64,000 bases of DNA, taken from the IMG/VR virus record IMGVR_UViG_3300033141_005858; one strand, written 5' to 3'. Source of the stretch: an uncultured virus (IMG/VR IMGVR_UViG_3300033141_005858). Its lineage: Duplodnaviria > Heunggongvirae > Uroviricota > Caudoviricetes. Position numbers and translations under genes: made by a program. This document shows, in pieces, positions 10,102-54,298 of the stretch (positions are counted from its first letter, which is position 1; every line of letters begins with the position of its first letter). A model generated the notes under the pieces. That model ran no database searches. It saw nothing but the letters and a program-made list of their open reading frames with translations, and was not told the DNA's origin.

Positions 10102-10707
10102 TCAATCCTCAAAATGTTTTAATTCTTCAATAGCATAATCAATTCCATAAACCCCGCCAACAACATCATAATCAAGTGGAATTTTATCCTTATCATATTT
10201 CTCCAATACCATCAGGTACACATCTCCGCTCAAATATTGATTCCAACTCTCTACCAAACCCTTCGCTAATCTTAAAGCCTTCTCCTCAGAATCAGCCTCC
10301 CTTTTATCAACAAGAACAACTCCAACATGGCTTGTATCCCAACCTTGTGGATCTGACATAAAGCTTCTACTTAAACTCAACCACACCCCGCTATGCACTA
10401 AACAAGACAACTCAAATACAAAATACTTATTCTCCAAACCTTCTGTATCCTCTCCTCGGTAAAAACTTATTACCTGTTCCTTTGTAACTAAATCCGGTCT
10501 CTCTACATAGAAATCCCTATGATAATTAACTAAAAATACCATATCATCTCCCCAATCATCCGGATTTTCTGCATCCTCATCATAAACAAGATAACGTGCC
10601 TCAAAACCATTCTTAACCTTTTTAATCGTTAAAGTATCCTCGATAGGCTTAAATAGAAACTCAAACCCATCATCACTAACATAAGTAATTTTTTTGCTAA
10701 TTTTCAT
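10102..10707 (-). CDS. Conserved phage hypothetical protein
   Basis: HSGVWLS...WDTSHVG...WNQYLSGDVY...GGVYG motifs; start moved to MKISKK. Confidence 0.75.
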   Translation of the reverse strand: MKISKKITYVSDDGFEFLFKPIEDTLTIKKVKNGFEARYLVYDEDAENPDDWGDDMVFLVNYHRDFYVERPDLVTKEQVISFYRGEDTEGLENKYFVFELSCLVHSGVWLSLSRSFMSDPQGWDTSHVGVVLVDKREADSEEKALRLAKGLVESWNQYLSGDVYLMVLEKYDKDKIPLDYDVVGGVYGIDYAIEELKHFED

Positions 10708-11632
10708 CCTTTTCTCCTTTTGTTTTAAGAGCAGCAACCTCAAGGTACTTTAATACTTCCCTCTTAGCCTGCTCTCTTGTAAGTTTCCTTATAACCTTTA
10801 ACCTCTTCACCCGAAACTTCCCATCAGAAGCAAAAGGAATGGCTACAATATCCTTAACACAAAATTCTACCTCAATGAATTCGAATTCATTCGCCAAAGC
10901 ACCGTCAATATCCTCAAAACACCACTGTAAAGTAGCAACATTAAAACCTTCTGCACAACTCAACCGCTCATCTGCTGAATAGTCTTTTACAGCATACGCC
11001 TTCCCTACCTCATAATGAAAATCAAAATACGGAGACTTCCCATCAACTAAATACTTCCATGCTCTCAACCTTGTCTCCGGCGGCTGCATCTTTAGAATAT
11101 ATAAACCAGGAAATGCCCAGGAAACCTCACCAAACTCCCAGTATCCAATCCTTGCTTTATCAAGAAAAGCACCACAGAGATTCACACCACAAAGATTCGC
11201 ATTCCTAAGATCTGCATAAGCAAGATTCGTATACCGAAGATTTGCACCTTCCAAACTCGCACCATAAAGATCTGCATGCTCAAGAACTGCATCCCTAAAA
11301 CTAACCTTTCTAAAATCTACATCCCTAAGGTTTGCATAATTAAGATCCGCACTACTAAAATCCGCACCTCCAAATTCTGCACACCTAAGATCTGCATACC
11401 TAAGATTCGCATACCTAAAATTCGCACCCCAAAAATCTGCATACCTAAGATCCGCATCCCCAAGACATGCATACCTAAGATCCGCCTCTCTGAGACTTGC
11501 ATACCTAAGATCCGCATGTTCAAGATCTGCATCCCTAAGATCCGCATACTCTAACTCTAACCTTTTACCACCCTTCTCCTTTAACCACAAACCATGGTCA
11601 TGAAGAAGTTCTTTTAATTTTTTTTCATCCAT
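10697..11632 (-). CDS. Pentapeptide repeat protein with a C-terminal phage domain
   Basis: Roughly 25 A[DN]L[RE]x-type pentapeptides after an H..WL...G.R cap; C-terminal YEVGK...C..G.....KFRV domain. Confidence 0.9.
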   Translation of the reverse strand: MDEKKLKELLHDHGLWLKEKGGKRLELEYADLRDADLEHADLRYASLREADLRYACLGDADLRYADFWGANFRYANLRYADLRCAEFGGADFSSADLNYANLRDVDFRKVSFRDAVLEHADLYGASLEGANLRYTNLAYADLRNANLCGVNLCGAFLDKARIGYWEFGEVSWAFPGLYILKMQPPETRLRAWKYLVDGKSPYFDFHYEVGKAYAVKDYSADERLSCAEGFNVATLQWCFEDIDGALANEFEFIEVEFCVKDIVAIPFASDGKFRVKRLKVIRKLTREQAKREVLKYLEVAALKTKGEKDEN

Positions 11633-12655: not shown

Positions 12656-13213
12656 TTAACTTTCCAACTTTAATAATTCAATCCCATAATCTATTATTTT
12701 AACAATACTTCCTTTGTCTTTAACAACATCAGCAGAATTTCGAGCAGTACCAGTAACACTCTTAACAATGATAGCTTCAATATCAGATTCAACAACCTCA
12801 GCAGCCCAAGCAGTAATCCAAGCAACAATCCCAGGAATCCCAACAGTGACATCCCCAACAGCCAAAGCAGCGACTTTAGCAGTTCTAGCAATGGCTCTAT
12901 TTTTTTCCGTTGGGCTGTTTATCCAGTTTTTTGTTGCCTGTATTGCCTGCCTAGGACGTTTATCATTAGGATATTTCCTCTCAAACATAGGCAATACTAA
13001 TTCTGCACAATATACAGCAAGCCTCGCCCTGTTCTCTCTTGTTTTGAGAAGCCTTGGTATAGCCCAGAACAACCAATCATCCGTATCCTCAATGTTAGAC
13101 TTACGAAGCCTATTAATAAGCTTGAACACATCTTTCGTGTCTTGTTCTTTAATCCATCTTATGGAGTCTTTGCAGGGTTTCCATTTCTCAATCCATGCTT
13201 TTGTTATTTTCAT
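12656..13213 (-). CDS. Imm5-like helical phage protein
   Basis: RLAVYCAELVLPMFE..YPNDKRPRQAI motif. Confidence 0.65.
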   Translation of the reverse strand: MKITKAWIEKWKPCKDSIRWIKEQDTKDVFKLINRLRKSNIEDTDDWLFWAIPRLLKTRENRARLAVYCAELVLPMFERKYPNDKRPRQAIQATKNWINSPTEKNRAIARTAKVAALAVGDVTVGIPGIVAWITAWAAEVVESDIEAIIVKSVTGTARNSADVVKDKGSIVKIIDYGIELLKLES

Positions 13214-21121: not shown

Positions 21122-22369
21122 TCAAATCGTATCTTTATATTTCTGAACCACAGCACAAGGAACATTAAGATTAATAACCGAAAGATCATACTTCCAGCCA
21201 TTCTCAGCCCCTGGTAACCTAAGTTCATCTGTTCTATGACCATACATAAGCTCTAACCCAAAATTCTGATCTATTATAATTTGATTGATTAATCTTAAAG
21301 CTTCTGCTTTCTTCATCAAAAACTTCTTACCCCCTATCCTTGACCCATCACTTGAAGCCATAAAACGATTAATTGGTATTTGATTTTTAAGTTCATTATA
21401 TTTTTCTAAACTTGCTACATGATGAAGCTGATAAAGACACTTCTCTTCAATCCCTAAAGGCAAAGCAGAATAAGGCAAGGCACTTCCTATCATCTGCCAG
21501 CGATACATCTTTACACCGGGTGTTATTTTTTGGATCTCTTCATTCACAATTTCACATATCCTATCATGCCATTCTTTTACCGGTGGTACCTCATTACCAG
21601 GGTTAAACCCCAATGATGTATTCCACCCAGGTCTCTTATACTTTACTTCTTCTTGCCAAATAATACGCACCACATATCTAGTAAATTTTTCAACATATTT
21701 AAAACTTTCTGAACATATATCAAAAGCTTTTTGAGGCTTATCATCAATCTGTTTAAGCCAATGAGTACCCCAAGAAGCATTGTCTCTATAATGCATCTGA
21801 CAAAAATCCCAAAGACCAATCGACCTAAATATCTCCCGTTCTCTTAGTATCTCCAGTCTTTCCAAAAGTAACCGCTTCCAGGTAGGATTAATATAATCCT
21901 CTATATCTTCATTAAGACTTGGTAAAAGATATACACCATGCTCGTTTTTAAGAAAAGGCTTTTCAATCCAAACTTCAAATTTTCCAGCCCAAGATGTATG
22001 ACCAATAAAAACTCTAGTCCCAGTACAAGCATCCTTCTCAGCAACCCGATCCCAAAATTTAACAGCTTCTTTCTTTGACAATTGTGCTTCTCTCACATAC
22101 AAAAATTCAGGAAAGAAAACTGTAAAAAGATAAGTAGGATAACCCTGCCTCTGCATAGAAGCAATCGGACGTACTTCTTCACTTATCTTAGGAACCTCTA
22201 TCCCAGGTTCTGGCAAAGGTGGTTCTGGTTCAACAGGTACTGGTTTATTTTTAGGTTTATGCAAATGTAAAAATACTATAACAACAAAAAGAACCGCACA
22301 AATAATTATCAATACCATATTATACCTCCTTCCAAACTCCAGAAACTTTGACATATACTTTTTCAACAC
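21122..22369 (-). CDS. Membrane-anchored glycoside-hydrolase-like TIM barrel (endolysin candidate)
   Basis: N-terminal TM helix, Pro-rich linker, GNE motif resembling the clan GH-A acid/base; lysis-cassette position. Confidence 0.5.
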   Translation of the reverse strand: MLKKYMSKFLEFGRRYNMVLIIICAVLFVVIVFLHLHKPKNKPVPVEPEPPLPEPGIEVPKISEEVRPIASMQRQGYPTYLFTVFFPEFLYVREAQLSKKEAVKFWDRVAEKDACTGTRVFIGHTSWAGKFEVWIEKPFLKNEHGVYLLPSLNEDIEDYINPTWKRLLLERLEILREREIFRSIGLWDFCQMHYRDNASWGTHWLKQIDDKPQKAFDICSESFKYVEKFTRYVVRIIWQEEVKYKRPGWNTSLGFNPGNEVPPVKEWHDRICEIVNEEIQKITPGVKMYRWQMIGSALPYSALPLGIEEKCLYQLHHVASLEKYNELKNQIPINRFMASSDGSRIGGKKFLMKKAEALRLINQIIIDQNFGLELMYGHRTDELRLPGAENGWKYDLSVINLNVPCAVVQKYKDTI

Positions 22370-23039
22370 TTTTCCACACCCCAGAAACCCTAACAGAAGG
22401 AGTACATTTTTTCCAATTTCCTGATACTTTTGCGTATATTTCTGGGGTTACGGCGATTAGCCTAGCACCCGCAGCAGCAAACCTGTTTAGAGTTCCCCAT
22501 GTTATCGTTCCGTTGCCGACTTTTGTATCGCCAACTAAATACCAGGGATTTGATGGACTACAGAAGAACCTCTCTACCTGACCACTTCCTCTTCCGTTTC
22601 GGGGATTGCTATAGCCAGACCAGACAGCCCCCACAGCCCAGTCGTTCGCTCCGACACTCCCTATGCTAAGAGTGCAGTTTGAGCCATCTGGATCACCCTT
22701 ATCAGTAGCTGCGTTACCTATGCCACTGACTCCAGAAAACGACATGCCACCTAATCCTTTCATATTACCCGCTGCACTAAATGTAGCAGAGAGAGATTTC
22801 ACACCAGAAGGTGGTGATAACATGTAAAACATCTTGATTCTTCTCCAAGTTCCCGCCGCCGATGCTATGAGGGTCATATCGACTCCATTAAACTTTGGAA
22901 CCGGAGTGCTTTGATTGTTAGAACCGCAAGTCCACGCTAGAACTATCCTGTTGCTTCCAGAACCCGCATCTAGATTTAATTGTACAGATGCAGAACTATC
23001 GTCTGTTAAACAATCCGCATCAATAATTGATATAGCCAT
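22320..23039 (-). CDS. Tail fibre / receptor-binding protein
   Basis: Gly/Ser-rich beta domain; C-terminal (Y/V)xKVSGxWK repeats typical of phage fibre tips. Confidence 0.75.
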   Translation of the reverse strand: MAISIIDADCLTDDSSASVQLNLDAGSGSNRIVLAWTCGSNNQSTPVPKFNGVDMTLIASAAGTWRRIKMFYMLSPPSGVKSLSATFSAAGNMKGLGGMSFSGVSGIGNAATDKGDPDGSNCTLSIGSVGANDWAVGAVWSGYSNPRNGRGSGQVERFFCSPSNPWYLVGDTKVGNGTITWGTLNRFAAAGARLIAVTPEIYAKVSGNWKKCTPSVRVSGVWKSVEKVYVKVSGVWKEV

Positions 23040-23048
23040 TTTCTATTC

Positions 23049-24659
23049 CTAAGCTGTATATTTCAGCCAAACGTCCCCATCAGAGCCTCCACTAGGATCG
23101 CTTGTACTAATGGTTATTTTCCTATGTCTATCAGATGCGTAATTCACTAATGAATTATGGTCAACTGTATCTGAGCCTCCTGACTGATGACTGCTTGCGT
23201 GAGCCTTAGGAGTCCTCGTTGCTGACTTATCATCAAGCTCCGCATCGCTTATCTTGGAGTTCAGATTTGCCAATGTATCTGCATTATGCTTGTCTCCACC
23301 AAGGTCGTGAGCAATAGGAGTCCTTGGCTCCGACTTATCATCAAGCTCCGCATCGCTTATCTTGGAGTTCAGATTTGCCAATGTATCTGCATTATGCTTG
23401 TCTCCACCAAGGTCATGAGCCGGTATTCCGCCGGTTGCCTCTGCTATCCACCTGCTTGTACTCTCGTCCCAGGATAATACATCATTGTCATTTGGCGTTT
23501 CTGCGTTCACGTCCACCAAATCGCTGAGCTTTGGGGGGAAAGTCGTAGGGAACAATTCCTTATACGCCGACGCAACAGTTAATAGATTTGCTCCAGATTT
23601 TTGAACTACGATTTTTGCAGCCAGGATTCCAAATTCACTGACTAATTCCGGGACAGTGTCAGGAAGCACTGCGTTTTCAGCCTCAGCCAGTTTATAATTT
23701 CCCTGCCCATAAACCACATTTATGTCGCTATCAAAATGGACATAGACCCAGTGGACCCCATAGCGGTTTGTTGTAAGTGTCGCAAGAGCCCCAGAACCAT
23801 CATCATAATGGATATTGTCGATTTGTTGCTGACCTGTGACTTTTGTCCAACCACCCCCACCGTCTCTATACCAGCAGGTAAACCTATCTGCCCCAGACGT
23901 ATCCTGTGCCGAAGTCTCTATCTTATTAAGCCCGAAATAGAAAACGCCGGCACCAGAGGTCAGGTATCTCTGTCCGGTCTCTGATATTTCCCCGCCAGAA
24001 GCACGCTCGAACCCTCTGACGTTTATCAGCCTTTCGTGTTCGTTGTATGCTAGTTCAGTTAACCTAATCCCATAACTTAGGATATGAAGTGTCGTCCCTT
24101 CTCTATAGACTTTACCCAGGATAAATTCTGTCCGCCCATCAAGCGTAGTTCTATCGATCGTCACTCCTATAACGGGGGAACCACCATTATAATTCATATA
24201 AACATAATTTATCTTACTGTCAGTTAAGGCTATTCCCGTATCAGCGTCCCAATCAAACGATTTTGTCAGCCCTGTAGGTGAGTCAGTCGTTTTTATAAAC
24301 CCAGTCCCTGCTGCCACGTCTATTGTCCCGTTATGTGCTGCGTTCTCTGTTATCTCCCCGCCAGAGATACGCCCAGCAGATTGTATGATATTCAGCCAAT
24401 CTTGGAGATCATCATAAGTCGGTGTTGTTCCTATGCTTTCTATTGAAATGTCATCAGCACTTATATTAAACAAACTATTACTCAATTCACCAAAACGATT
24501 AGTTAAAACCGGCTTTAATTTATCTTCCACCCCACGAGATCTTCGTATAAAATCCTTTTTTAAGAAGAAAAAGTTCTCTCCTCTATGTGCCAAATTAGCA
24601 GGCTGTGAGGCATGTTTATTGAACTTCTCAAAATCTGCAAATTTCTGTTTCTTAGCCAT
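23049..24659 (-). CDS. Tail fibre protein
   Basis: LSDLVDVN...VLSWD....W motif, AHASSH..GGSD motif, PSGGSDGDVW end, internal duplication. Confidence 0.8.
   Translation of the reverse strand: MAKKQKFADFEKFNKHASQPANLAHRGENFFFLKKDFIRRSRGVEDKLKPVLTNRFGELSNSLFNISADDISIESIGTTPTYDDLQDWLNIIQSAGRISGGEITENAAHNGTIDVAAGTGFIKTTDSPTGLTKSFDWDADTGIALTDSKINYVYMNYNGGSPVIGVTIDRTTLDGRTEFILGKVYREGTTLHILSYGIRLTELAYNEHERLINVRGFERASGGEISETGQRYLTSGAGVFYFGLNKIETSAQDTSGADRFTCWYRDGGGGWTKVTGQQQIDNIHYDDGSGALATLTTNRYGVHWVYVHFDSDINVVYGQGNYKLAEAENAVLPDTVPELVSEFGILAAKIVVQKSGANLLTVASAYKELFPTTFPPKLSDLVDVNAETPNDNDVLSWDESTSRWIAEATGGIPAHDLGGDKHNADTLANLNSKISDAELDDKSEPRTPIAHDLGGDKHNADTLANLNSKISDAELDDKSATRTPKAHASSHQSGGSDTVDHNSLVNYASDRHRKITISTSDPSGGSDGDVWLKYTA
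23224..23420. repeat. 89-bp tandem duplication (108-nt period) in the tail fibre gene
   Basis: 23224-23312 vs 23332-23420, 1 mismatch; encodes AHDLGGDKHNADTLANLNSKISDAELDDKS twice. Confidence 0.95.
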
Positions 24660-24669
24660 CTAAAATCTC

Positions 24670-26070
24670 CTAAACCATACAAACCCCACCTTTCTTTATT
24701 TGGCTATTATCTCGCAAAGATAACTTACCTAAATCAGCTAAAATATCCAAAGCCACACTTACTTCTATCCTAGTCAAGCGACAATAATTTGGCATCACTA
24801 GCTTTCGACTACCCATCAACTTGGCATAAGTAGCATTACAACCCTTCATACAAAATTGCCGAGCCATACAATCATCACAATCAAACCCTTCTCTAACATC
24901 TCCTCTTACCTGACGCCTTTCTAAAGACCGAGTCTTAAATAATGTAAATTCATCCCAACCATTCCAAACATCCCCCATCGCCCATTTATCTGGATTATTG
25001 TAACTACCATAACGTTGGCATGCATATAACTTCCCTCTCCAATCAATAGAAGCACTATTCCAAGCAACCCCACACATTCTACCTTCCGGAGGATTAGGGC
25101 TCCTCAATTGACTTAAAACAGTATTAAGGAATTTAAGATTAATATTTACACCACTTCTCTGAGCATATTTATAATACTCTCCTAGCTTCTCTAAAAGATG
25201 CCGGTAATCCATTAATTGTTTCTCCGACCAATCAGTTTCAAAATCTGGCTCTATTGCAATTGACTTAAAACCTTTATTCCTTAAAAACCTAAAATCATCA
25301 AACCAATCACCTACAGTTTCCGGAGTTATTGTAGGTCGGATCTCAATATTAGGAAACCTAGACAAAATCTCATCTACTGGAATATCATCAAAAGAACCTT
25401 TACCATCTTTATAAATTCGATTCAAATCATGCGTCTCTTTTCTCCCGTCAATACTCAAAAGAAAAGGATTCCTTGAATTAAAATTCTTCTCTATCCAATC
25501 CAGACGCTCTGTATTTAATAAAGTACCATTCGTGGTCATCCCCCAACCCACACTCACTCCGTTCTTTTTAGCTAATTGATTTCCAATATTAACGATATCC
25601 TCCAATTGACTCCATCTTGTAGTTGGCTCTCCCCCAAAAAAATGACACTTTATATTTTTATGGGGTTGAATTTCAAATAACCACTTCAACATTTGATGCA
25701 TCGTTTCTTTAGACATATTCCCAGGGTTGGTTGTAGCATAACAATACCTGCAAGCTAAATTACATCCACTAGTATGATGAATAAAATACACCATCGGCAT
25801 CCCCCCGCCGCTCTTCTTTTGACCCGCTGTCACATCGCTACCAACTCCCTGTTGGCAAGTATAACAATTCCTACAAAGTTCCATTAAAGTTTTTTTCTTT
25901 TTTTCAATACCCTTCTGCCTCATATCATTTACAGTCACACCCCCATCAACTCCCTGTTGACAAGTATAACAATTCCTACACAAACTTTCTTTATTATCTT
26001 TCTTATTGTCTCCTCCATAACTAACTTCACAAGTATAACAATTTTTACATATTTCCTTCTTTTTATCCAT
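24670..26070 (-). CDS. Radical SAM/SPASM peptide/protein maturase with N-terminal CxxCxxC repeats
   Basis: CNLACRYC, FFGGEP, TTNGTLL and LSIDG motifs; SPASM CG...G.LYAC and CxxCx5Cx3C...C. Start moved to the ATG at 26070 after AGGAG. Confidence 0.93.
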   Translation of the reverse strand: MDKKKEICKNCYTCEVSYGGDNKKDNKESLCRNCYTCQQGVDGGVTVNDMRQKGIEKKKKTLMELCRNCYTCQQGVGSDVTAGQKKSGGGMPMVYFIHHTSGCNLACRYCYATTNPGNMSKETMHQMLKWLFEIQPHKNIKCHFFGGEPTTRWSQLEDIVNIGNQLAKKNGVSVGWGMTTNGTLLNTERLDWIEKNFNSRNPFLLSIDGRKETHDLNRIYKDGKGSFDDIPVDEILSRFPNIEIRPTITPETVGDWFDDFRFLRNKGFKSIAIEPDFETDWSEKQLMDYRHLLEKLGEYYKYAQRSGVNINLKFLNTVLSQLRSPNPPEGRMCGVAWNSASIDWRGKLYACQRYGSYNNPDKWAMGDVWNGWDEFTLFKTRSLERRQVRGDVREGFDCDDCMARQFCMKGCNATYAKLMGSRKLVMPNYCRLTRIEVSVALDILADLGKLSLRDNSQIKKGGVCMV

Positions 26071-26081
26071 TACACTCTCCT

Positions 26082-26861
26082 TTATATTCCCTGCACTGTA
26101 ACACACACCTGACAGGTAGATACACAAGATTCACATGTATCACAAAACTGGCATGTATCACACGAATAACAACTTACATTCAACTGACACGTATTACACT
26201 TTTCACATGAATCACATAGATTACAATTTACCTGATTCTGGCAAGTATTACAAACATCACACGCTGCACAATCCTGTGCTGTGTTACACACCTCGCATGT
26301 ATTACATTTTACACAACTCACTGCACTCTCACAAGTATCACATACATCACAAGTAGCACAATCCTGTGTTGTGTTACATATTTGACAAGCATCACACATA
26401 TCACACACTTCACAATCCTGTGCTGTGTTACATACCTGGCAGGTATCACATTTTGCACAGCTTACCTGGCTCTCACAGGAATCACATATATCACACACTG
26501 CACAATCCTGTGCCGAAACACACACATCACAAGTATCACACACTTGACAAGCATTACATACCTGGCATGTATTACAAGTTTGGCAACCACCCTGATCTGT
26601 ATTACAAGTTTCACATGAATCACATAGCTCACAAGAATCACAAAAATAACAACCACTCTCCGCAGTATTGCACACCTCACACGTATCACATAATTCACAA
26701 GTCTGGCAACCCGCCACATTTGTTTCACAAGTATCACACACCTGACAAGTTTCGCACGAAACCACTCCCTGCTGGCAAACATCACACACCTCACAAGCAG
26801 AACATTCCGCCGTATTACACAACTGACAAGTATTACATAATTCGCAAGCTCCGCAAGCCAT
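26082..26861 (-). CDS. Cys-every-third-residue (Cxx)n repeat protein, putative rSAM substrate or tail component
   Basis: 70 Cys in 259 aa (manual count); lies directly upstream of the rSAM gene. Confidence 0.85.
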   Translation of the reverse strand: MACGACELCNTCQLCNTAECSACEVCDVCQQGVVSCETCQVCDTCETNVAGCQTCELCDTCEVCNTAESGCYFCDSCELCDSCETCNTDQGGCQTCNTCQVCNACQVCDTCDVCVSAQDCAVCDICDSCESQVSCAKCDTCQVCNTAQDCEVCDMCDACQICNTTQDCATCDVCDTCESAVSCVKCNTCEVCNTAQDCAACDVCNTCQNQVNCNLCDSCEKCNTCQLNVSCYSCDTCQFCDTCESCVSTCQVCVTVQGI

Positions 26862-26889
26862 TTTAAATTCCTTTATTCATTATAATATC

Positions 26890-29628
26890 CTAAAAAACAG
26901 AAGTCACGCAAAGCTGGCAAAGATTGCAATTTTGACATTCATAACAATTCTCACAAGCATCACACACATCACACAATGCACAATCCTGTGTTGTGTTACA
27001 TATTTGACAAGCATCACACACATCACACACTTCACAATCCTGTGCTGTGTTACATACCTGGCAGGTATCACATTTTGCACAGCTTACCTGGCTCTCACAG
27101 GAATCACACACATCACACACTTCACAATCCTGTGCTGTGTTACATACCTGGCAGGTATCACATTTTGCACAGCTTACCTGGCTCTCACAGGAATCACATA
27201 CCTGACAGGTATCACATTTTTGACAACTTACTTGGGATTCACAACTATCACACACATCACACACTGCACAATCCTGTGCTGTGTTACATACCTGGCAGGT
27301 ATCACATTTTTGACAACTTACTTGAGATTCACAACTATCACACACATCACAAGTATTGCACGCCTGGCATCCATAACAATTTTGACAGGTTCCACATGAA
27401 CTCACATTTACTTCACAAGCATTACATGCCTGGCACGTATTACACAACTGACAAGTTGAACAAGTACCAACGGTAGTTTGACATGTATTACAAGTCTGAC
27501 AAGAATTACATAGCTGGCAACCACCCTGATCTGTATTGCATAACTGGCAACTGTCACACACCGCACAACCACCCTGTGCAGATACACAGGTTTCACATTC
27601 ATAACAAACATCACAAGATTGTTCCTCTACATTACAAACCTGACAAGAATAACAAACATAACAAAAAACTTCACCCAGCGTTTGTAAATCATCCATAACC
27701 ACAAAATTAGTCTTCTCGTTTTTTGTATCTTTAACGACTTCTCGGATTCTAAAAACATCTCCATCTAAACTCCCACCAGCAACTCCTGCCCTCTCCCTAT
27801 TTAATTTCAATTTCCTTGTAGGAAATAAACCAAAACCTTTAACCCCACAAGAAGATTCTATTATAGTTAAAGGCTTAGAACACATACTAAGAATACCACC
27901 AGCCACAGATTCAGCATCTGCTGAATTTTTTAAATATGTTTCAAAAGGTAATGTATCCCTAACCTTATACTTATATAAAACAGAATAATTAACCTTCTCC
28001 ACTTCCTTAAATTCTAAAGTCTTCGGATCTTGATCATATAAAATTCTAACCTTATCCCGCACATAAGATTCATCCTGTTTCACGTCAAACTTCTTACCAT
28101 AATCTCCGTCTTTCAATTCCAAAGTACCTTCCGGTACCGTAGGCTCATAAGCCTCAAAAGATAATTTACCATTTTCAGTTGGAGCAAAAAAAGCCACAAT
28201 ACTCCGACCAATGGTTTGTAAAACTTCTCTTGAACCAACTTCAGTATCTAAATAAATAGCTAATTCATACGTTCTTAAACTCTCTGTAGCAGAAAAAGAA
28301 TCCAAATCCAAATCATCATCTAAAAAACCAAGTACATTTTTCAAAATATCCAAAGCAATTTCAGAACCATGAATCAAAAGACTTCCATCACCTGCTTCAA
28401 AGCCCTCTCCATCAATCAATAACTCGTCTCCCCCATTAACATCTATTTCTTTATGTAGAGTTAATTCAGCGTTAGCTAAATCTAAAGTATAATCAGTACC
28501 CGAAGATAATACAGTTCCATTTAAACGAACAGCACTCACCGAATGCACTTTCCGGCTCGCCCACTTCCACTTAGTGTCTCCCCCTACAATATATACTATA
28601 TCGGAATCGGAATAATTTCCAATAAGCTCACAACCAGCATCTACACACAATTGAAAAATACCATGACCAGAAGAGTTCGACCAGCTTGTATAATAATATC
28701 TATGAAAAGGTTTCCCTTTAATACCCACAATTCCAGAAGATGGAACCGCAGCATCAATTTCTTCCTGAACCTCTATTGTAGTATCCCCTTCATTATTAAC
28801 CCCAGAAACCGCAGAAGTGTATTCCCAAGGCATCTGAATACAAGTCGGAACTATATTCTCCTTTTTCCCATAAAATAAAGGAATTGGTCTACCTTCTGCA
28901 TTAGGATCTAACCTAGGATAATTAGAAGTCCAATAATGATCAATAGGAAGTGTTGCAAAAGTACCCACTCTTATATCCTTAACACTAGGAACAACCTCCT
29001 CATCAGAAACATAAGCATCAGACCAACGACCCACAAAAAATGCTTGGTACTCTGAAGAAGGAAGAGAAAGACTTCCAACCTCAATAACAACTCTAGCATT
29101 ATACCAGATATAATCAACAATCGCAGTATCCCACCACCCATTATTTTCCATACTAAAAGATCCAAAATTAAACTTATAAAAACCTTCAATTATATCATCA
29201 ACTGAAAGCTTCAATAAAGGAAAAGAATCTTGACGAACTATTGGCATACAAGGAATTCCATCAATCTCCAATACACTTGTTGCAAAAAACTTCCAACATT
29301 TTACAATAATAACCACATCAGTAGATGAATTACTAAGGTCATCATTATCGGTTGCATGTACATAAATAATTTGATTATAAAAATCAAAATACCAACTCCC
29401 AGCATTAGCCTTAACATCCCCAACAGATGTTTTTTCAGTCAACTCAACCCCATCATCCAAAACCGCATTCACTTTTTGCTCTTCACAAGTATGTGAATAT
29501 GTATTACTACCCTCAGAAACCCAACCACTACCAGTATCCATAAAAATACCCGGATTCACTTTTACCACATACTCTAAATCAGGATTAGGCAACCGAGAAA
29601 GTTTTTTCCAAGTATCCACACCACTCAT
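26890..29628 (-). CDS. Tail hub/tip protein fused to a C-terminal (Cxx)n repeat domain
   Basis: Position after Dit and TMP; GRPIPLFYG hub-like motif; last ~257 aa (26893-27663) are Cxx repeats. Confidence 0.85.
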   Translation of the reverse strand: MSGVDTWKKLSRLPNPDLEYVVKVNPGIFMDTGSGWVSEGSNTYSHTCEEQKVNAVLDDGVELTEKTSVGDVKANAGSWYFDFYNQIIYVHATDNDDLSNSSTDVVIIVKCWKFFATSVLEIDGIPCMPIVRQDSFPLLKLSVDDIIEGFYKFNFGSFSMENNGWWDTAIVDYIWYNARVVIEVGSLSLPSSEYQAFFVGRWSDAYVSDEEVVPSVKDIRVGTFATLPIDHYWTSNYPRLDPNAEGRPIPLFYGKKENIVPTCIQMPWEYTSAVSGVNNEGDTTIEVQEEIDAAVPSSGIVGIKGKPFHRYYYTSWSNSSGHGIFQLCVDAGCELIGNYSDSDIVYIVGGDTKWKWASRKVHSVSAVRLNGTVLSSGTDYTLDLANAELTLHKEIDVNGGDELLIDGEGFEAGDGSLLIHGSEIALDILKNVLGFLDDDLDLDSFSATESLRTYELAIYLDTEVGSREVLQTIGRSIVAFFAPTENGKLSFEAYEPTVPEGTLELKDGDYGKKFDVKQDESYVRDKVRILYDQDPKTLEFKEVEKVNYSVLYKYKVRDTLPFETYLKNSADAESVAGGILSMCSKPLTIIESSCGVKGFGLFPTRKLKLNRERAGVAGGSLDGDVFRIREVVKDTKNEKTNFVVMDDLQTLGEVFCYVCYSCQVCNVEEQSCDVCYECETCVSAQGGCAVCDSCQLCNTDQGGCQLCNSCQTCNTCQTTVGTCSTCQLCNTCQACNACEVNVSSCGTCQNCYGCQACNTCDVCDSCESQVSCQKCDTCQVCNTAQDCAVCDVCDSCESQVSCQKCDTCQVCDSCESQVSCAKCDTCQVCNTAQDCEVCDVCDSCESQVSCAKCDTCQVCNTAQDCEVCDVCDACQICNTTQDCALCDVCDACENCYECQNCNLCQLCVTSVF
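27013..27198. repeat. 90-nt tandem repeat within the Cxx domain, also shared with the neighbouring gene
   Basis: 27013-27108 repeats exactly at +90; 26356-26486 matches 26978-27108 with 1 mismatch. Confidence 0.9.
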
Positions 29629-29632
29629 TTTA

Positions 29633-30748
29633 TCATCCTTCTATAAACCAACTCAATGAAACCCTTGTAAAATAAGCATCCTGCCTCTGTTTATTAAAAC
29701 CAGAAGCAAAAAAACAATATTGCATAGTTTTCTTTACATCAGAAAAATCTTCAACAAAAATAAAAGGATAATGACCTCCCACCGCATCATAAACCTGTTT
29801 AAGTTTATCCAAATCATCATCTAAAACTATATAATCAACTCCTCGCAATGTCAAAACATAACCTCTACTAATATTTAAGTATCCCTTTTTTGTTCTTCTT
29901 TGCTCACTTTGATCTTCATATTTAACAACTTCTCCATATTCATAACCCCGGCTAGTTTCAATATAAGTACCAAGCAAAGGAAAACCCACCTCTACATAAC
30001 CATCAGGATTCATCCAATCCTTTATTTTCACTTTCCATTTAGATCCGCTAACTTCAGAAAAAAATAAATGTGCGCGACCTTTATCCGAATCATATATAAA
30101 ATCCCCAACCTTTTGCCACGAAGACGTGTAACGATACAACTCTAAAGTCTGATAACTTGCTGTTAAATTCAAACCCAAAAGAACACACCCCTTCATCGCA
30201 ATTGCACTGCCATCTCCCGAAGCAATCTCAAAACCAGCACAGTTATGAATTCTAACATAATCAGAAGTATAATTATCGGAACCAGTATCATCTGAAGAAG
30301 TATCAAAACCCAAATCTGCTCCTATACTAGCAGAAGCATTAGCCCCAGTAGCCCACAAAAGAGAAAAAACTACACTTTCATTTTTAATATTAAATTTATT
30401 AGCATTATCCGAATAAGATACCGTATAATAATAACCTCCCCCATGAGCTGCACTTTCTGTCTCTAAAGCAGCCTCCACTTCTGCAATCAAACTACTGGCA
30501 TCATACCAACCTGGTGTAACAACCGCAGTTAATTCTGTACCATTTTCTTTAAAATTTATATATTTATTATTATCATCTATATACCAAGAACCCCAACCAG
30601 AATTATTTCCATATTTAGACCGATAAGAATAATCCACCCAAATATCTTTTAAAAAACTAATTGGATAAGAAGGATGATAATCTCCATTCCGGATAGGAGT
30701 TACAGTACCATCTAATGTAATTGTATCCCACATAAAAACATTACCCAT
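29633..30748 (-). CDS. Distal tail (Dit-like) / minor tail protein
   Basis: Immediately downstream of the TMP; GYVEVG...G motif. Confidence 0.65.
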   Translation of the reverse strand: MGNVFMWDTITLDGTVTPIRNGDYHPSYPISFLKDIWVDYSYRSKYGNNSGWGSWYIDDNNKYINFKENGTELTAVVTPGWYDASSLIAEVEAALETESAAHGGGYYYTVSYSDNANKFNIKNESVVFSLLWATGANASASIGADLGFDTSSDDTGSDNYTSDYVRIHNCAGFEIASGDGSAIAMKGCVLLGLNLTASYQTLELYRYTSSWQKVGDFIYDSDKGRAHLFFSEVSGSKWKVKIKDWMNPDGYVEVGFPLLGTYIETSRGYEYGEVVKYEDQSEQRRTKKGYLNISRGYVLTLRGVDYIVLDDDLDKLKQVYDAVGGHYPFIFVEDFSDVKKTMQYCFFASGFNKQRQDAYFTRVSLSWFIEG

Positions 30749-33700
30749 TAGAATATCCCCTCTCCATTAACTTCATAATCAGCATATCTTCCACCCTTTC
30801 TCAAAAATGGAACCAACACATGATAAAGCCTCTCACCATCAACATTTAAGTTAACTTCAATAACCTGATTTCCACTATCTTCAGATCGCACAGGAGTAGT
30901 CTGTTTACCAAAGAATGCCCTCAAAGCAGAAGCAATCTGCTCTGGTAAAATTGCCTCCCCTTGATGAATATAACCAAAACCAGCCTTTGTAATTTCAAGA
31001 GCCCCTGTCTGAAAAGAAGGAATAGTTGCTCCTGCCCCTTTATCAAACCCGAAATTGGTTAAACCATCCAATAGAGTGAAAGACTTTTCTAACTCTTCAT
31101 TAGCATCCCCAGCAGAACGGGCAATTCTATCAAAATTATCCAACAAACTCTGCTCCATGCGATCTCCAGCCAAAGTCATATCATTAGACATATAATCCGC
31201 CATTCTATCTAAAGCACCATAAAAAATATCACCCATCTCCACAACATTATCATCAAAAGAATCTCTAAACCTATGCACATCTCGTGTTGCATTATCAGAA
31301 AATTTCGACACATCCCCTTCCATTATTTTTAAATTCCTACCAAGTTTTTGTGATAATCGATCAGTTAAAAACCCAAAAATCTCTATCAATTTCTGCAAAC
31401 GCTCATCCAACATATTAAAACCATCACTGATAGCATCTTGCATCGAATTAAAACCCTCTTTCATAATATCAGCAGTATCCACATATTCATCCTTCAAGAA
31501 ACCAGCCTGGTCTGCCTGCTGTATCATAGAACGAGTGGTTGCATCCAGAGTATAACCATACTCGTCTGCAAAATGCTGCAACTGAGATAAAGTAGGAGCC
31601 ATAATCCTTAAAGCCTGCTCTGAAGTATAACCAGCATCAACAAGACGCTGATAATAATTTAAAGCCTGATCAGCAACATCTGACAGGCTCTCGGTTGTCA
31701 GAAAACCAGTAAGCCCCAAAGATTTAAGAACATCCACATTACCTTGGATTGCTTTAAAAAGAGCTTCGTTTTCTTCTTTTAAAGTAACCATACCAGATAG
31801 TACTTTAAAAGCTTCACTGCCCTCTAAACCAAGAGCGGCATACCGATCTCTTAAAGCAGCCACTGCATCTCCCATAACATCAAAAACTTCTATCAAAGGC
31901 AGCCCCTGAGACAGCATACTCTCAAACAAAGTTAAAGATAAACGAGCTGTTCTATCTAACTCATCTTGAAGGTCGGGACCCAACTCATCCCCTAAAGCCT
32001 CTATCTGATTTTGAAGATCTTTATATTGATCAGTAGCACAACCAAACTCTTCCTGAGCCTCAATCAATTTTTGGAGCTCTTCCTCTGCTATTGTATAACC
32101 CTCAGCCATAGCTTTAAGACCTTTACTACCAGTATCAAACCACGTTTTCACATATTCAGTAACTTCTTTAACTTCAATACCCATCTTTCTTAAAGTCTGA
32201 ATAAACTTAAAGGCTGCTCTAAACGCTCCCTGACCAGCATCTATCATTTCCTCAAAAGTAGATCCTAAAAGTTCAGAAGCTGCTCTAGCATCCAAAATAC
32301 CAGAACGAATCAAACCAAGAACTTGATTCATATAACCCCAAGCCTCATTCAAAAGACCCTCCTCAATAAACGATTCTATCATCTCTTGAAGGGTATCTAT
32401 CGAAACATAAGCTGAAATCGCTCCGCTCTTTATTTTCTGAAACAGTTCATTTACTATCTTAATTGCATCCTTAAAAACCTTAGCATCTAAAGCCGCAGTA
32501 AAAATATCCATAAGCTCTTTTAAAGCAGTCATAGGAGCCCCCGGCAAAGTTCCTCTCCCTAAATAATGCCAAATCTCTTCTAATGCTTGATCAAGATAAT
32601 TATAAAACCCATTAAAACCTTTACCACTAAAAGTAACAAGACTACTTCCAAAAGTCTCATAAGCTTCTATCAAAGCTTCAACAGCAGACTGATTCTCCTC
32701 TACAGAATCTGTTAACTCATCCATCTCATCTTTTGCGTCATTAATAGCTTTATTAATGGCAGAAAATAACAAAATCACCATAGCCATAATCAACATAATC
32801 CAATTACTCATATTTGTAAATATAGTTTCAACAGACTCCGCAATTAAATCAACTAACTTCTGAGCCAAATACTGCCGAGCCGCACTCACTATAGAACGAA
32901 AAAGACTTGTAAAAGAGTCTTTAATCGACTTTGTAACATCAAAAATATCTCCAGCAAAACCTCCAAGCGCCTGGGCTAACTGCTGACTAAACGACCGTAA
33001 AGCTGAAGCCAACTCTTCCCAACCAGCTTTATAATGCTCCATAACTTTCTTGATATTCTCAATTGAAAGTTTAGTAAAAAATAATAAATAAGCTAACAAT
33101 CTATTATACATCTCCTTTTGAATCCTAACCCGCTCCTCAGAATTCGCCCTCTCTGCCCGTATCATCTCTTTTCCTTTCTTTATAAACTGATCAGCTAACC
33201 GAGAATAAGCCACCATTTGAGACATTTCTAATTCTTTCTGCATAATCTTCAACAATTCATTATATTTTTCCTCCACTTCCAACTTTTTCTCAGCCGCCAT
33301 TTCAGCCTCTTCTATTTCCTTTTGATACCGTCTTTTAACTAATTCAATTTCTGCTTTCTTCTGTTCTACAACTTTCAACCAACTCTCTCCTTCTATTTCA
33401 GCCAACATCTGAGAAATTTTACTTTGATGTTTAATTAAATCATCACCCAGACTCTGTATAAGATTTATATAATCTTCATTAGTTTCTTTACTTTTCTTTC
33501 TAAATTCCTCTAACTTTTCAATCCAACCTTCAAGAGCTTCTCGAACTTTTACATTTTTAACTTCTTCCAACCTTTTTTTTAAAGTCTCTAAAGGCTCTTT
33601 CATTGACAAAACCCACTCTTTAAGCTGCCCCTTAGAAACTGCCTTCCCCATCATATCAAAAGCTTTAACCAAACCCGCGGCATATTCTTGTAAACTACTA

Positions 33701-35973
33701 GTCGTCATTGAAGCCTCTTCCATAGTACTAATAAATGTACGCATATGATCATCTACACGCTTCTGAATATCATATTGATCTTTCTGATGCTGCGCCACCA
33801 ACACCACATCTTGCAGAAAACTTTCCAATTGCTTTTCCAAATTCTCATAAGATAAACCAGCCTGAGCCGCCATCCTCCCAAAAGACTCTCTAAAAGCATC
33901 CGCTAAAATACTATCTTCGCTTAAATAACTACCCAAGTTTTGTAAAAATTTAGCTAGCTCATTAATATCTTCCTTAGTCATTGAATCCATCATCTCAGTT
34001 GGAAGCATCCTTATACTCTGCACCGCCTTATTAAGCATATCTGTCCTTCGTAAAAGTGTTCGATACCTATTACCAACCTCACTAGCCACAGCATCCACTT
34101 TAAGCCACTGATCAATCTGTTTCTCCAAAACTTTATTAATTATACCCAACTCTCTAGCCACCCTAGCCAAAAGAGTAATCTGTTCTTGGGTAGCCGATCC
34201 CTCAAAAAAAGCCTCCAATGCTTCCTTAATCTTTTTATACATATAAACTGCTTCTTGACTAGCATAACCTAAAGCTTTTGTCATTTTAGCACTAGCCACC
34301 TCTATACCTTTAGCCTTCCGAATATACTCACCGAATGCAGAACTTATATCAGCATAATGAGTAGTCATCATTTTAATAGAACTTGACAAAGTAACCTCTT
34401 TATCAGTAACTTCCTCAACAATCTCAGCAATCTCTTTATACTTCTTCAAAGTTTTAAAATAAGCATCTGACCTTGCTCGCTCAGCCGCAATCTGCCGATC
34501 AATTGCATCAGTCCAAGATTTAATAGCCGCCTTAGCCGCAATATAAATCGGAATAGCAATCATAAGACTCCGCGAAGCAAAAGATAAAACACCAGCCCAT
34601 GCTTTAATCCTTGCAGCCGAAGCAGCCGCTTGTGCTGTTGCCGCTTTTATTTGAACATGTGTAGCATATACACTGGTAGCTAAACCAGCCATCCTTTCCT
34701 GTACTATTAAAAGTGCAGCATTTAATGCTTGAATTGCATAACGCAAACCAACCACTATTAAAATCAAACCACTAACCTCTCTAAAATTTCTAATCAAAGC
34801 CTCAAACAAATTACCCAAAATTCTAACCAAAATTGAGACTGACCCGGTATATCTCGAAACTGACATAGCAGCCTGCTGAACTTGAACCCCAAACGCCTTT
34901 ATCTCTTCTTTTAAAGTTTTTGTAACTTTTAAAAATGCCCGATGAGTAACCCCAGCTCCTTCAGCAGCCTTATCCATCTTACCTAAAATTCTAGTATAAT
35001 CTTCAATACCTTTACCAGTTAAAATAAAAGCTCCTCTCAAAGCCCGCTGCCTTCTAAAAATTTCTGGAAGTATTCCTTGATAACGAATAGACGCATTTCT
35101 TAAATCCTGAATACGCTCAGTAAAACTACGTGCTTGAAAAGCATTAATACCCCATTCCCATCCTAACTTTTTAAACCAATCCTTTGCTTTATCAATAGGA
35201 CGAAGAAATGAAATCAGCATTCTATTCAAAGCAGTAGCAGCCTGGCGTGCATCCATACCCTGCTGAGACATAGCAGCTAAAGCCGCTGCAACCTCATTCA
35301 CACCAACCCCCATAGCAGCCGCAGTCGGTAATACTGTACCTAAAGCCGCATTCAAATCTTCAACATGAAACTTACCTTCTTGAACCGAAACAAAAAGTTG
35401 ATCTGACACTTTTCGCATATCATCTGCTTTTAAATGATAAGCCTTCATAATAGAAGTCAAAGAGGAAGCAGCAGTACCTAAATCAGTCAACCCCCCTTTT
35501 GCATATTCAGCAGAAACCTTTAAAAGTTTTGTTGCCTCTGACACACTATTAACACCAGCCGACATAATCTCATAAAGACCTCTTGTTAAATTAGTAGCAC
35601 TACCCAGATGAGTGTTCATAGACAAAATTTGTTCTTTCACATTAGCAAATGCTACCGCATTCTCCCGAACCCGCGTATCTATTAAAGTCGAAACCTCAGC
35701 AAAACGATGCTCCAATTCAACTACATCTTTAAGAACAGAAGCCATTCCAGTAAAAAATGTAAAAATCATTGAATAAGTAGCTATTCTTTTTAAAGACAAA
35801 ATCAAATAATCAAAATTTGTAGACATCTTCTTTGTCATACGCATAACTTCAACCATTTTTTTATGTGTACGCTCAAATGCAGTAGTAGCATCCCCCAAAG
35901 GACGGACAACCCCCCCAGTATCGACTGCTAATTCAGCCTTAACATTTGCCTGAACATTCGTTACATCAAACAA
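30748..35973 (-). CDS. Tail tape measure protein (TP901-like core)
   Basis: 1741 aa, helical; FAEVSTL...LYEIMSAG...AKGG.TD core and C-terminal FQTGA...IHQGEAILP. Confidence 0.95.
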   Translation of the reverse strand: MFDVTNVQANVKAELAVDTGGVVRPLGDATTAFERTHKKMVEVMRMTKKMSTNFDYLILSLKRIATYSMIFTFFTGMASVLKDVVELEHRFAEVSTLIDTRVRENAVAFANVKEQILSMNTHLGSATNLTRGLYEIMSAGVNSVSEATKLLKVSAEYAKGGLTDLGTAASSLTSIMKAYHLKADDMRKVSDQLFVSVQEGKFHVEDLNAALGTVLPTAAAMGVGVNEVAAALAAMSQQGMDARQAATALNRMLISFLRPIDKAKDWFKKLGWEWGINAFQARSFTERIQDLRNASIRYQGILPEIFRRQRALRGAFILTGKGIEDYTRILGKMDKAAEGAGVTHRAFLKVTKTLKEEIKAFGVQVQQAAMSVSRYTGSVSILVRILGNLFEALIRNFREVSGLILIVVGLRYAIQALNAALLIVQERMAGLATSVYATHVQIKAATAQAAASAARIKAWAGVLSFASRSLMIAIPIYIAAKAAIKSWTDAIDRQIAAERARSDAYFKTLKKYKEIAEIVEEVTDKEVTLSSSIKMMTTHYADISSAFGEYIRKAKGIEVASAKMTKALGYASQEAVYMYKKIKEALEAFFEGSATQEQITLLARVARELGIINKVLEKQIDQWLKVDAVASEVGNRYRTLLRRTDMLNKAVQSIRMLPTEMMDSMTKEDINELAKFLQNLGSYLSEDSILADAFRESFGRMAAQAGLSYENLEKQLESFLQDVVLVAQHQKDQYDIQKRVDDHMRTFISTMEEASMTTSSLQEYAAGLVKAFDMMGKAVSKGQLKEWVLSMKEPLETLKKRLEEVKNVKVREALEGWIEKLEEFRKKSKETNEDYINLIQSLGDDLIKHQSKISQMLAEIEGESWLKVVEQKKAEIELVKRRYQKEIEEAEMAAEKKLEVEEKYNELLKIMQKELEMSQMVAYSRLADQFIKKGKEMIRAERANSEERVRIQKEMYNRLLAYLLFFTKLSIENIKKVMEHYKAGWEELASALRSFSQQLAQALGGFAGDIFDVTKSIKDSFTSLFRSIVSAARQYLAQKLVDLIAESVETIFTNMSNWIMLIMAMVILLFSAINKAINDAKDEMDELTDSVEENQSAVEALIEAYETFGSSLVTFSGKGFNGFYNYLDQALEEIWHYLGRGTLPGAPMTALKELMDIFTAALDAKVFKDAIKIVNELFQKIKSGAISAYVSIDTLQEMIESFIEEGLLNEAWGYMNQVLGLIRSGILDARAASELLGSTFEEMIDAGQGAFRAAFKFIQTLRKMGIEVKEVTEYVKTWFDTGSKGLKAMAEGYTIAEEELQKLIEAQEEFGCATDQYKDLQNQIEALGDELGPDLQDELDRTARLSLTLFESMLSQGLPLIEVFDVMGDAVAALRDRYAALGLEGSEAFKVLSGMVTLKEENEALFKAIQGNVDVLKSLGLTGFLTTESLSDVADQALNYYQRLVDAGYTSEQALRIMAPTLSQLQHFADEYGYTLDATTRSMIQQADQAGFLKDEYVDTADIMKEGFNSMQDAISDGFNMLDERLQKLIEIFGFLTDRLSQKLGRNLKIMEGDVSKFSDNATRDVHRFRDSFDDNVVEMGDIFYGALDRMADYMSNDMTLAGDRMEQSLLDNFDRIARSAGDANEELEKSFTLLDGLTNFGFDKGAGATIPSFQTGALEITKAGFGYIHQGEAILPEQIASALRAFFGKQTTPVRSEDSGNQVIEVNLNVDGERLYHVLVPFLRKGGRYADYEVNGEGIF

Positions 35974-52836: not shown

Positions 52837-53374
52837 TAGCCAAAACCCTCATAGAATCAAGAAATTTATCTAAATTAGCTTTTCGATTATAACAAACAGC
52901 AGCCGGATGAATAGAAACCACGACTTTAAACCCACCACTATGCTTAAAAACATTACCGTTATATTCGGAAACCTTATTTATTCCACATAAAAAATAATTA
53001 GGCTGGGCTCCTAAGATTAAGACCACCTTAGGCTTAACAAGTTCAAACTCCTTCCTCAAAAAAAGATTAAAACAAGTCTTAGCCTCCTCTTTTCTTAAAT
53101 TCCTATTGTCTTTCGTTTTACACTTACACAGATTTGTAATAAATACTTCAGATCGCCGGATACCCACATATTCAAGACCCGCATCTAACACATGACCAGC
53201 CTGCCCAACAAAAGGTCTCCCTAATCTATCCTCTACGTCTCCGGGGTTCCTACCCACAATCATTAAATCACTACCAGACTCCCTGCCCTCAAAAGGAACC
53301 GGATTTAAACATTCCTTACGTGCAGAACAAGCTTTACACTGTAATATAGAATTAATCAAATTTTCTCGACTCAT
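52817..53374 (-). CDS. Uracil-DNA glycosylase family 4-like protein
   Basis: CxxC Fe-S ligands, PG..ED..GRPFVG.AG, FITN..KC...NR and HPAA motifs. Confidence 0.88.
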   Translation of the reverse strand: MSRENLINSILQCKACSARKECLNPVPFEGRESGSDLMIVGRNPGDVEDRLGRPFVGQAGHVLDAGLEYVGIRRSEVFITNLCKCKTKDNRNLRKEEAKTCFNLFLRKEFELVKPKVVLILGAQPNYFLCGINKVSEYNGNVFKHSGGFKVVVSIHPAAVCYNRKANLDKFLDSMRVLANVIKKS

Positions 53375-54297: not shown

Positions 54298-54298
54298 A

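Follow-up and report, generated by a model that had tools for sequence, protein, structure and literature searches.

The tail module of an uncultured virus (Duplodnaviria; Heunggongvirae; Uroviricota; Caudoviricetes), read in a stretch of 64,000 nucleotides from the IMG/VR record IMGVR_UViG_3300033141_005858 (hereafter the window), encodes a baseplate hub protein that ends in a long repeat with Cys at every third residue, (Cxx)n, a separate protein made of the same kind of repeat, and a radical S-adenosylmethionine (rSAM) enzyme with a SPASM region. The hub repeat, the free repeat and the enzyme form an inseparable trio, and this late-operon cassette of an uncultured siphophage is real, conserved and so far undescribed in phages. 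We strongly infer that the repeat proteins are the substrates of the enzyme. It is moderately probable that the enzyme staples the hub-fused and the free repeats with thioethers into a central tail-tip fibre.

A conserved trio of tail genes

The three genes and their parts are located in the window as follows.

26890-29628, minus strand: hub protein, 912 aa, a baseplate hub domain with a C-terminal (Cxx)n domain
27664-29628, minus strand: baseplate hub domain, hub residues 1-655, from AlphaFold2 (AF2) modelling and Foldseek
26893-27663, minus strand: C-terminal (Cxx)n domain of the hub, residues 656-912, 70 Cys, from Cys spacing and a conserved junction
26082-26861, minus strand: free (Cxx)n protein, 259 aa, 70 Cys, starting M-A-C, with its own AAAGGA upstream
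26327-26540, minus strand: 214-nt stretch of the free gene, 91% identical to 26949-27162 of the hub gene, from DNA repeat comparison
24670-26127, minus strand: open reading frame (ORF) of the rSAM/SPASM enzyme, with a likely start at ATG 26070, giving 466 aa
25786-26070, minus strand: N-terminal region of the enzyme, with three C-x-N-C-Y-T-C-[EQ] copies in the place of a recognition element
25108-25785, minus strand: radical SAM core with the CNLACRYC cluster motif, from PF04055 (E 1e-13) and the alignment to the PapB model
24748-25074, minus strand: SPASM region with seven conserved Cys for two auxiliary clusters, from invariant Cys and the alignment to CteB (5wgg)

In the order of transcription, the tape measure protein (TMP) gene is followed by the genes for a protein at the position of the distal tail protein (Dit), the hub, the free repeat protein, the enzyme and two tail-fibre-like proteins, with intergenic gaps of 4 to 28 nt or a 1-nt overlap. 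An earlier note on this DNA, made from the sequence alone, had described this order, on a single strand and with tight spacing, and the ORFs agree with it; its label 'Dit' stood as regards the position, and gained no backing from a family or PDB sequence match. The other parts that it had named were likewise found: a hub ending in about 257 aa of (Cxx)n, a stand-alone 259-aa repeat protein with 70 Cys and no leader, and a complete enzyme, with intact rSAM and seven-Cys motifs, whose nearest families make Cys-to-side-chain thioethers.

Relatives of the trio were retrieved in two ways. When the search was led by the enzyme, a single-sequence pattern scan of IMG/VR returned nothing, and a scan with an alignment of three enzymes succeeded, giving 74 loci. 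Fifteen of these loci have an enzyme at 29-52% identity; each of the fifteen has two Cxx ORFs directly upstream, with hub homology in 13 of them. The other two of the fifteen, L203 and L204 (30% identity), belong to different phage backbones and keep the trio; their repeat is joined to an unrelated small N-terminal domain, the fusions adjoin a virion protein or follow the capsid gene, and both the free copy and the enzyme are present.

To avoid circularity, the hub-to-repeat junction alone was then used as an enzyme-independent query. It led to 19 metagenome and 18 IMG/VR loci, which gave 31 distinct contigs after six same-length duplicates had been merged. The enzyme is encoded on 22 of the 31, and the other nine break off no more than about 200 nt from the last repeat ORF. 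The earlier note had proposed looking for hub-(Cxx)n and SPASM genes together in phages, and had held that (Cxx)n tail proteins commonly occurring without the rSAM enzyme would refute its idea; this case did not arise, as the enzyme is present in all 22 informative contigs, and the number of contigs with room for it that lack it is zero.

The enzyme family is represented in the protein collection by about 50 clusters at an identity of at least 35%, all environmental. In INPHARED, enzyme matches were distant (56 records, all below 60% identity), and tblastn with the hub gave no match. No close relative of the enzyme was found in cellular genome contigs, where the best full-length match has 26-28% identity and comes from metagenome-assembled genomes of Acidobacteriota; the loci of the nearest homologues in cells, which reach at most 28% identity over the full length, number 58, and none of them carries Cxx ORFs. 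A scan of DNA for eight TGY units with a period of 9 met mostly unrelated low-complexity DNA, and the true relatives among the 131 loci examined were L001-L004 and L038.

The repeat domains and the baseplate hub

The last 257 residues of the hub contain 70 Cys, separated by 3 residues in 56 of the 69 intervals, by 6 in eight and by 7 in five, and the preceding 655 residues have just 8 Cys. In the free protein, 55 of the 69 intervals are of 3 residues. When the domains were shuffled (2000 times each), the mean number of such spacings was 10 and the highest 22. Both domains are devoid of Arg, His, Trp and Pro, and have 3-4 Lys, 35-39 Asp plus Glu and 7 Gly each. The DNA of the repeats has higher-order periods of 54, 90 and 144 nt, and the 91%-identical stretch of 214 nt suggests sequence exchange between the two repeat genes. 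A non-coding repeat was considered and rejected, since the Cys residues are kept across relatives at 30-59% protein identity. Plus-strand ORFs across the repeats (e.g. 26366-26866) are antisense by-products of the repeat.

The hub repeat begins after a conserved junction, [DE]DLQ[ST]xGxxFC[YE]VC[YF]xCQ. The free protein begins with M-A-C in the window and in relatives, and in 13 loci its repeat starts 3-14 residues after the beginning of the stop-to-stop frame, so that the free protein lacks the canonical leader peptide of a ribosomally synthesised and post-translationally modified peptide (RiPP). One relative (L190:7104-8048, which shares its contig with L038) seems to start its free repeat gene at ATC: none of ATG, GTG and TTG stands where the start codon is expected, and GGAGG is followed by ATC-GCT-TGT.

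In 27 repeat ORFs taken from 14 loci, Cys is followed by Q in 25%, D in 21%, E in 14% and N in 9% of the triplets, 69% in total, and the second residue is T (26%), S (22%) or V (15%), 63% in total. Counting four residues on from each Cys in the window, D, E, N or Q is found for 57 of the 70 Cys of the hub domain and 60 of the 70 of the free protein. Neither Pfam, NCBIfam nor the PDB has a match for the (Cxx)n domain of the hub; the weak PDB profile matches of the repeat are all zinc fingers (best E 0.018), and the only PHROG match of the free protein is the weak phrog_15341. The free protein was modelled by AF2 from 10 sequences with a confidence score (pLDDT, predicted local distance difference test) of 43, its ESM Atlas model has a pLDDT of 0.46 and only extended low-confidence chains as structural neighbours, and the prediction of a complex of three copies scored 0.00; hub residues 653-912 have an AF2 pLDDT of about 25. 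A strict three-residue period in the fibre-forming part of a tail protein is shared with collagen-like (Gly-X-Y)n tail-fibre segments, but the window repeat has Cys in place of Gly, no Pro and linkers that often shift the phase. Such a repeat would not be expected to form a collagen triple helix, and this structure was rejected given the periodic Cys and the 7 Gly and 0 Pro per domain.

A profile search with the free protein gave 267 matches at E <= 0.001, many of them other Cys-rich proteins; true runs of spacing 3 occur in 90 of the 152 inspected, and the hub junction only in a minority. In two hub-like proteins, P0062 (980 aa) and P0063 (1021 aa), the Cxx domain extends over about 400 aa and contains 126-129 Cys; these may be fusions of hub and free copy or just longer fibres. 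Apart from these, small phage proteins of a second family, which have no Pfam match, carry long C-x-[ND] runs behind a short conserved N-terminal domain. In Campylobacter phage CC_R7 (XLL17427.1, L264:7860-8582) such a gene lies beside the portal gene, locus L070 has three paralogues, and many further members appear among the profile matches, with runs of up to 39 consecutive spacings of 3.

The rest of the hub could be placed by its predicted structure. In an AF2 model built with ten homologues, residues 1-650 have pLDDT values mostly between 75 and 92, and Foldseek matched this part to T5 pb3 (7zhj_b, E 1.1e-19), to the hub of DT57C (8hqz_A, E 4e-19) and to the lambda tail tip (8xcg, E 8.5e-12), followed by Chi, JBD30 and T1 and, more distantly, by Mu gp44, VgrG and gp27, with 65 matches at E <= 0.001. 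The fold of this part and the position after the TMP and Dit-position genes are those of the T5 pb3 and lambda gpJ type, with the difference that no known hub ends in a Cys-triplet repeat. The model thus indicates that the repeat is fused to a genuine baseplate hub, in agreement with the suggestion of the earlier note that the candidate substrate is joined to a structural protein. Hubs of this type are trimers whose C-terminal side leads into the central tail fibre. As residues 1-650 fold like T5 pb3 and lambda gpJ, the repeat would sit where the central tail fibre starts. Two relatives have longer hubs, of 1470 and 1704 aa (L196:2817-7229 and L202:1145-6259), in which a large N-terminal extension precedes the hub domains; both retain the trio of Cxx tail, free copy and enzyme.

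The lengths of the fused and the free domains are closely matched. Over 21 loci, in a range of 71-301 aa, the correlation is r = 0.995 and the median difference is 4 aa, and none of 10,000 permutations equalled the observed fit. In the window the two domains are 252 and 251 aa long by this measure, with 70 Cys each. In an ungapped test of the Cys register, 63 of the 70 Cys of the window domains coincide in the forward direction; outside the window, no clear parallel or antiparallel signal was obtained. Given the matched lengths, the fused and the free domains probably pair side by side at 1:1.

The enzyme and its surroundings

The likely start codon of the enzyme is ATG 26070: an AAGGAG lies 7 nt upstream of it, and the product agrees with the 466-aa form in the protein collection. 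The protein belongs to the rSAM superfamily, with its CxxxCxxC motif (CNLACRYC) at ORF residues 122-129. The Pfam SPASM model gave no match at E <= 0.01; the seven-Cys SPASM pattern is present nevertheless, as C352-x12-G-x4-C370, C417-x2-C-x5-C-x3-C430 (C417, C420, C426 and C430) and C449, and these seven Cys are invariant in three aligned homologues. The nearest solved sequence is CteB (5wgg, E 1.2e-32), with an alignment that starts at CteB residue 100 and runs up to residue 448. The scores against NCBIfam models were as follows.

PapB (NF047865): 207.3 bits, E 3e-61, cut-off 340, model positions 10-324 of 330 aligned
SCIFF maturase (TIGR03974): 140.7 bits, cut-off 425
nif11-type maturase: 136.1 bits, cut-off 518.7
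QhpD (TIGR03906): 125.9 bits, cut-off 453
CXXX-repeat maturase (TIGR04115): 105.1 bits, cut-off 350
Anaerobic sulfatase-maturating enzyme (anSME): 81.4 bits, cut-off 349.45
TIGR04463 (CrpC family): 63.7 bits, N-terminal half only, cut-off 525
RumMC (sactisynthase): 44.1 bits, cut-off 720
StsB (sactisynthase): 41.5 bits

The scores for PapB, TIGR04463 and TIGR04115 are all under the curated cut-offs; the enzyme is related to the PapB family but is no member of its equivalog, and it falls outside the other two. By sequence comparison, it is a relative of the enzymes that form thioethers from Cys to side chains, outside all the named families.

Canonical RiPP enzymes have a RiPP recognition element (RRE) on or beside them, and here none was detected: in Pfam and NCBIfam, neither the enzyme nor its neighbours matched PqqD or an RRE. 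The N-terminus of the enzyme, about 95 residues, contains instead three C-x-N-C-Y-T-C-[EQ] copies with Lys/Gly-rich linkers between them; the Cys-motif repeats take up N-terminal residues 1-114. The corresponding motif, C..C[YF].C[EQ], is found at position 1 and at about 17/18, and often at 35, in 15 of 15 hub-type repeat domains, and is missing from 10 of 17 free proteins. The enzyme N-termini have 1-5 copies of it each (12 examined, plus L203), and that of L204, the most distant homologue, has CxxCxxCY. Where an RRE would be expected, the enzyme thus carries copies of the motif that opens its presumed substrate.

Other phage sequences contain rSAM genes next to small Cys-rich frames. In Phage Phass-1, a gut phage that uses genetic code 15, an unannotated 174-aa frame with a Cys-rich tail (L298:6153-6674) comes right after a PapB-like rSAM gene and may make another enzyme-substrate pair with it. 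In MT835472.1, which is 91 kb long and bears the label of a gut phage, a short precursor of SCIFF-like type (GGCGECQTSCQSAC...; L299:4405-4617) is encoded about 400 nt upstream of an rSAM gene.

The window is phage DNA, with all genes on the minus strand and with terminase, portal, capsid, tail and replication genes encoded; no relative of the capsid was found in cellular genome contigs, and no tRNA genes were found in the window. The enzyme-bearing contig is 81 kb long, and relatives sit on contigs of 84-101 kb. The remaining genes of the tail module are the following.

30748-35973, minus strand: TMP, 1741 aa; PF10145 E 9.9e-33, TIGR01760 E 1.1e-26, 20 TMP PHROGs
29633-30748, minus strand: Dit-position protein, 371 aa, between TMP and hub, from position and synteny only
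23049-24659, minus strand: tail fibre protein, 536 aa; phrog_5668 (tail fiber) E 6.6e-11, phrog_14064 E 4e-8
22320-23039, minus strand: minor tail or fibre protein, 239 aa; phrog_553 (minor tail) E 5.8e-6

The 371-aa protein is kept at the same place in relatives, at 29-46% identity. Its sole family match is phrog_8610, a PHROG without an assigned function, and no match was found in Pfam, NCBIfam or PDB sequences (best E 0.011); it is a putative distal tail protein by position only. Elsewhere in the window, a second radical SAM protein of 831 aa (Radical_SAM_N2 and Radical_SAM) is encoded on the minus strand within 50341-54381. Its gene overlaps one of the uracil-DNA glycosylase (UDG) superfamily (52817-53374), a methyltransferase gene is nearby (53716-54381), and the three may form a DNA-modification module. 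The small early genes include those for a protein of pentapeptide repeats (PF00805, E 1.7e-36) and for an Imm5-like protein (10697-11632 and 12656-13213). The GC skew is strongly negative throughout the window, from -0.18 to -0.59 in 2-kb windows.

Proposed maturation of the tail tip and its alternatives

The maturation route that we infer extends from the docking mode, the thioether chemistry and the acceptor residues to the pairing of the chains and their presence in the virion. The enzyme would be made alongside the tail proteins and would act in the anoxic cytoplasm of the host, before or during tail assembly. Since it has no leader to bind and no RRE, it would probably dock by means of the substrate-like motifs at its own N-terminus, the copies of the opening motif of the hub repeat, and would then move along the leaderless repeats. 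At each step a side-chain hydrogen would be taken from the Asp, Glu, Asn or Gln that follows a Cys, at +1 and +4, and the side-chain carbon of this acceptor would be joined to the Cys sulfur in a ranthionine-type thioether. By repeated links both repeat domains would become densely stapled, redox-insensitive rods, and the stapled hub-fused and free chains would assemble into the central tail-tip fibre. Thioethers, unlike disulfides, would persist in reducing surroundings.

Chemistry of this kind has precedents. The closest published case is CrpC/CrpA of Methanococcus voltae, in which a SPASM enzyme puts ranthionine-type thioethers on a 28.8-kDa Cys-repeat protein encoded next to it, whose cross-linked repeats carry C-x-x-Q/D (PMC13692751, Dieter et al. 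2026). As in the window, the Cys precedes the acceptor, a second related protein is present in the cluster and the AlphaFold confidence on the repeat is low. However, an RRE is predicted for CrpC and the N-terminal 47 aa of CrpA resemble a leader, and the window system has neither; CrpC belongs to TIGR04463, for which the window enzyme is far below the cut-off; and CrpA has a 17-residue motif repeated 10 times, whereas the period in the window is of 3 residues. CrpA is moreover a cellular protein without an assigned role, as opposed to a repeat fused to a tail hub, and the word 'phage' occurs 0 times in PMC13692751.

The other systems resemble the window in part. PapB is the best-scoring family, and it links Cys to Asp or Glu at +1 to +7, always C-terminal to the Cys, with CX3D as the native motif (PMC12373016), so that D, E, N or Q at Cys+4 in the window repeats has the native PapB spacing. 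Its substrate PapA (freyrasin) is a short leader-bearing peptide with six links and RRE docking, in contrast to two leaderless domains of about 250 aa with 70 Cys each. The rSAM/SPASM enzyme QhpD places Cys-Asp and Cys-Glu thioethers in a protein subunit of a larger assembly (as summarised in PMC13692751); unlike the window system, QhpD/QhpC has three links, a leader and an RRE, and the product is an enzyme subunit of quinohemoprotein amine dehydrogenase and not a fibre. CteB, the SCIFF maturase (5wgg, 5why), is covered in both its rSAM and SPASM parts, and its N-terminal 100 residues have no counterpart in the window enzyme, which has the Cys-motif repeats there. These 100 residues are the RRE of CteB. 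The CXXX-repeat maturase (TIGR04115) is also an rSAM/SPASM enzyme paired with a short-period Cys repeat, but its substrate has a period of 4 and not of 3. To our knowledge, the CXXX-repeat system is neither phage-borne nor fused to a structural protein.

In the literature, we found no report on radical SAM modification of phage virion proteins, and PMC12801897 names a cyanophage rSAM gene merely as an 'antibiotic synthesis gene'. The statement of the earlier note that no characterised example exists therefore holds for viral and structural targets, and it does not hold for proteins in general, since CrpC/CrpA and QhpD/QhpC have been characterised (PMC13692751). What is new here is the repeat domain, the proposed target, a tail-tip fibre, and the proposed recognition of the substrate; the kind of reaction that we propose, a protein-directed maturation of ranthipeptide type, is known.

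Several points weigh against the stapled fibre. The enzyme is under the curated cut-off of every named family, including PapB (207 against 340 bits), and its chemistry is therefore extrapolated. An acidic acceptor is available for only about half of the Cys (35-39 Asp plus Glu per 70 Cys), and because PapB is so far restricted to acidic acceptors, Asn and Gln must be assumed to serve as well. Overlapping i to i+4 rings on every triplet lack precedent. The low AF2 confidence on the repeats, with pLDDT values of 43 and about 25, gives no backing to a rod shape or to pairing, and gene conversion between the two repeat genes may partly explain the length match. Many of the 22 contigs are close kin (L291/L292, L289/L290, L266/L286), and the independent count is nearer to a dozen lineages. 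Finally, no enzyme was found within 6-8 kb of the (C-x-[ND])n genes in CC_R7, L020, L070, L087 and L088, so Cys triplet repeats can exist without a neighbouring maturase.

This last observation also favours an unlikely alternative, a fibre held by metal (the earlier note, too, had named a metal-loaded filament) or by disulfides, in which the thiolates would hold Zn, Fe or another metal, or would oxidise extracellularly, and the enzyme would make few marks or serve another target. The composition of the domains is compatible with it (70 Cys, and 35-39 Asp plus Glu against 3-4 Lys and no Arg per domain), as is the zinc-finger nature of the weak PDB profile matches; CrpA itself is a suspected metal binder (PMC13692751). 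A metal or disulfide fibre is, however, at odds with the strict adjacency of the enzyme in 22 of 22 informative contigs and in two unrelated backbones, and with the copies of the substrate motif in the enzyme N-terminus, and the enrichment of D, E, N and Q by the Cys suits acceptor sites. Metal binding and cross-linking are in any case compatible with each other.

The free 259-aa protein could also act outside the virion, as a helper of the kind proposed for CrpB, a template or chaperone by which the hub repeat is presented to the enzyme, as a fibre assembly factor or as a released product; we consider this rather improbable. Genes for fibre chaperones usually lie in phages directly after the fibre-bearing gene, which is the place of the free gene, and the length match would suit a template as well as a structural partner. 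Furthermore, CrpB increased the extent of CrpA modification (PMC13692751). The free protein, which consists of no further domain, nevertheless equals the hub domain in Cys count and acceptor pattern and therefore looks like a substrate itself. Another type of reaction on the repeats, whether a sactionine (S to C-alpha), an anSME-like conversion of Cys to formylglycine or an epimerisation, is very improbable. SPASM enzymes are chemically diverse and this one is under all the family cut-offs, but the sactisynthase and anSME models score far lower than the ranthipeptide-type one (44 and 81 against 207 bits). The target motif of anSME needs Pro or Ala and Arg; formylglycine formation was rejected on the 0 Pro and 0 Arg of the domains and the weaker model score.

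Stapling of both repeats into a central tail-tip fibre is thus the account that we favour. A more specific form of it, which we put forward only tentatively, is a two-component fibre of equal chains in register, with nearly all Cys, some 140 in each pair and about 420 in a trimeric tip, in a thioether ladder, made by a leaderless processive rSAM enzyme that would find its substrate through mimic CxxC[YF]xC[EQ] motifs that replace the RRE. If this two-component ladder is true, the fibre would be a new protein material, covalent, insensitive to redox conditions and suited to anoxic and reducing habitats, in which disulfides break down.

Virions are known to be strengthened covalently by links that form by self-catalysis, for example the isopeptides of the HK97 capsid. 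A dedicated radical enzyme that staples a tail protein would, if confirmed, represent a different principle. It would extend thioether chemistry of the RiPP type, beyond peptides and CrpA as the single archaeal protein, to a large structural assembly, and would define a way of recognising substrates with neither leader nor RRE. The system is compact, with three genes, and its enzyme could serve for stapling repetitive proteins. Should the thioether-ladder reading be true, enzymatic stapling would be a general and overlooked mode of virion maturation.

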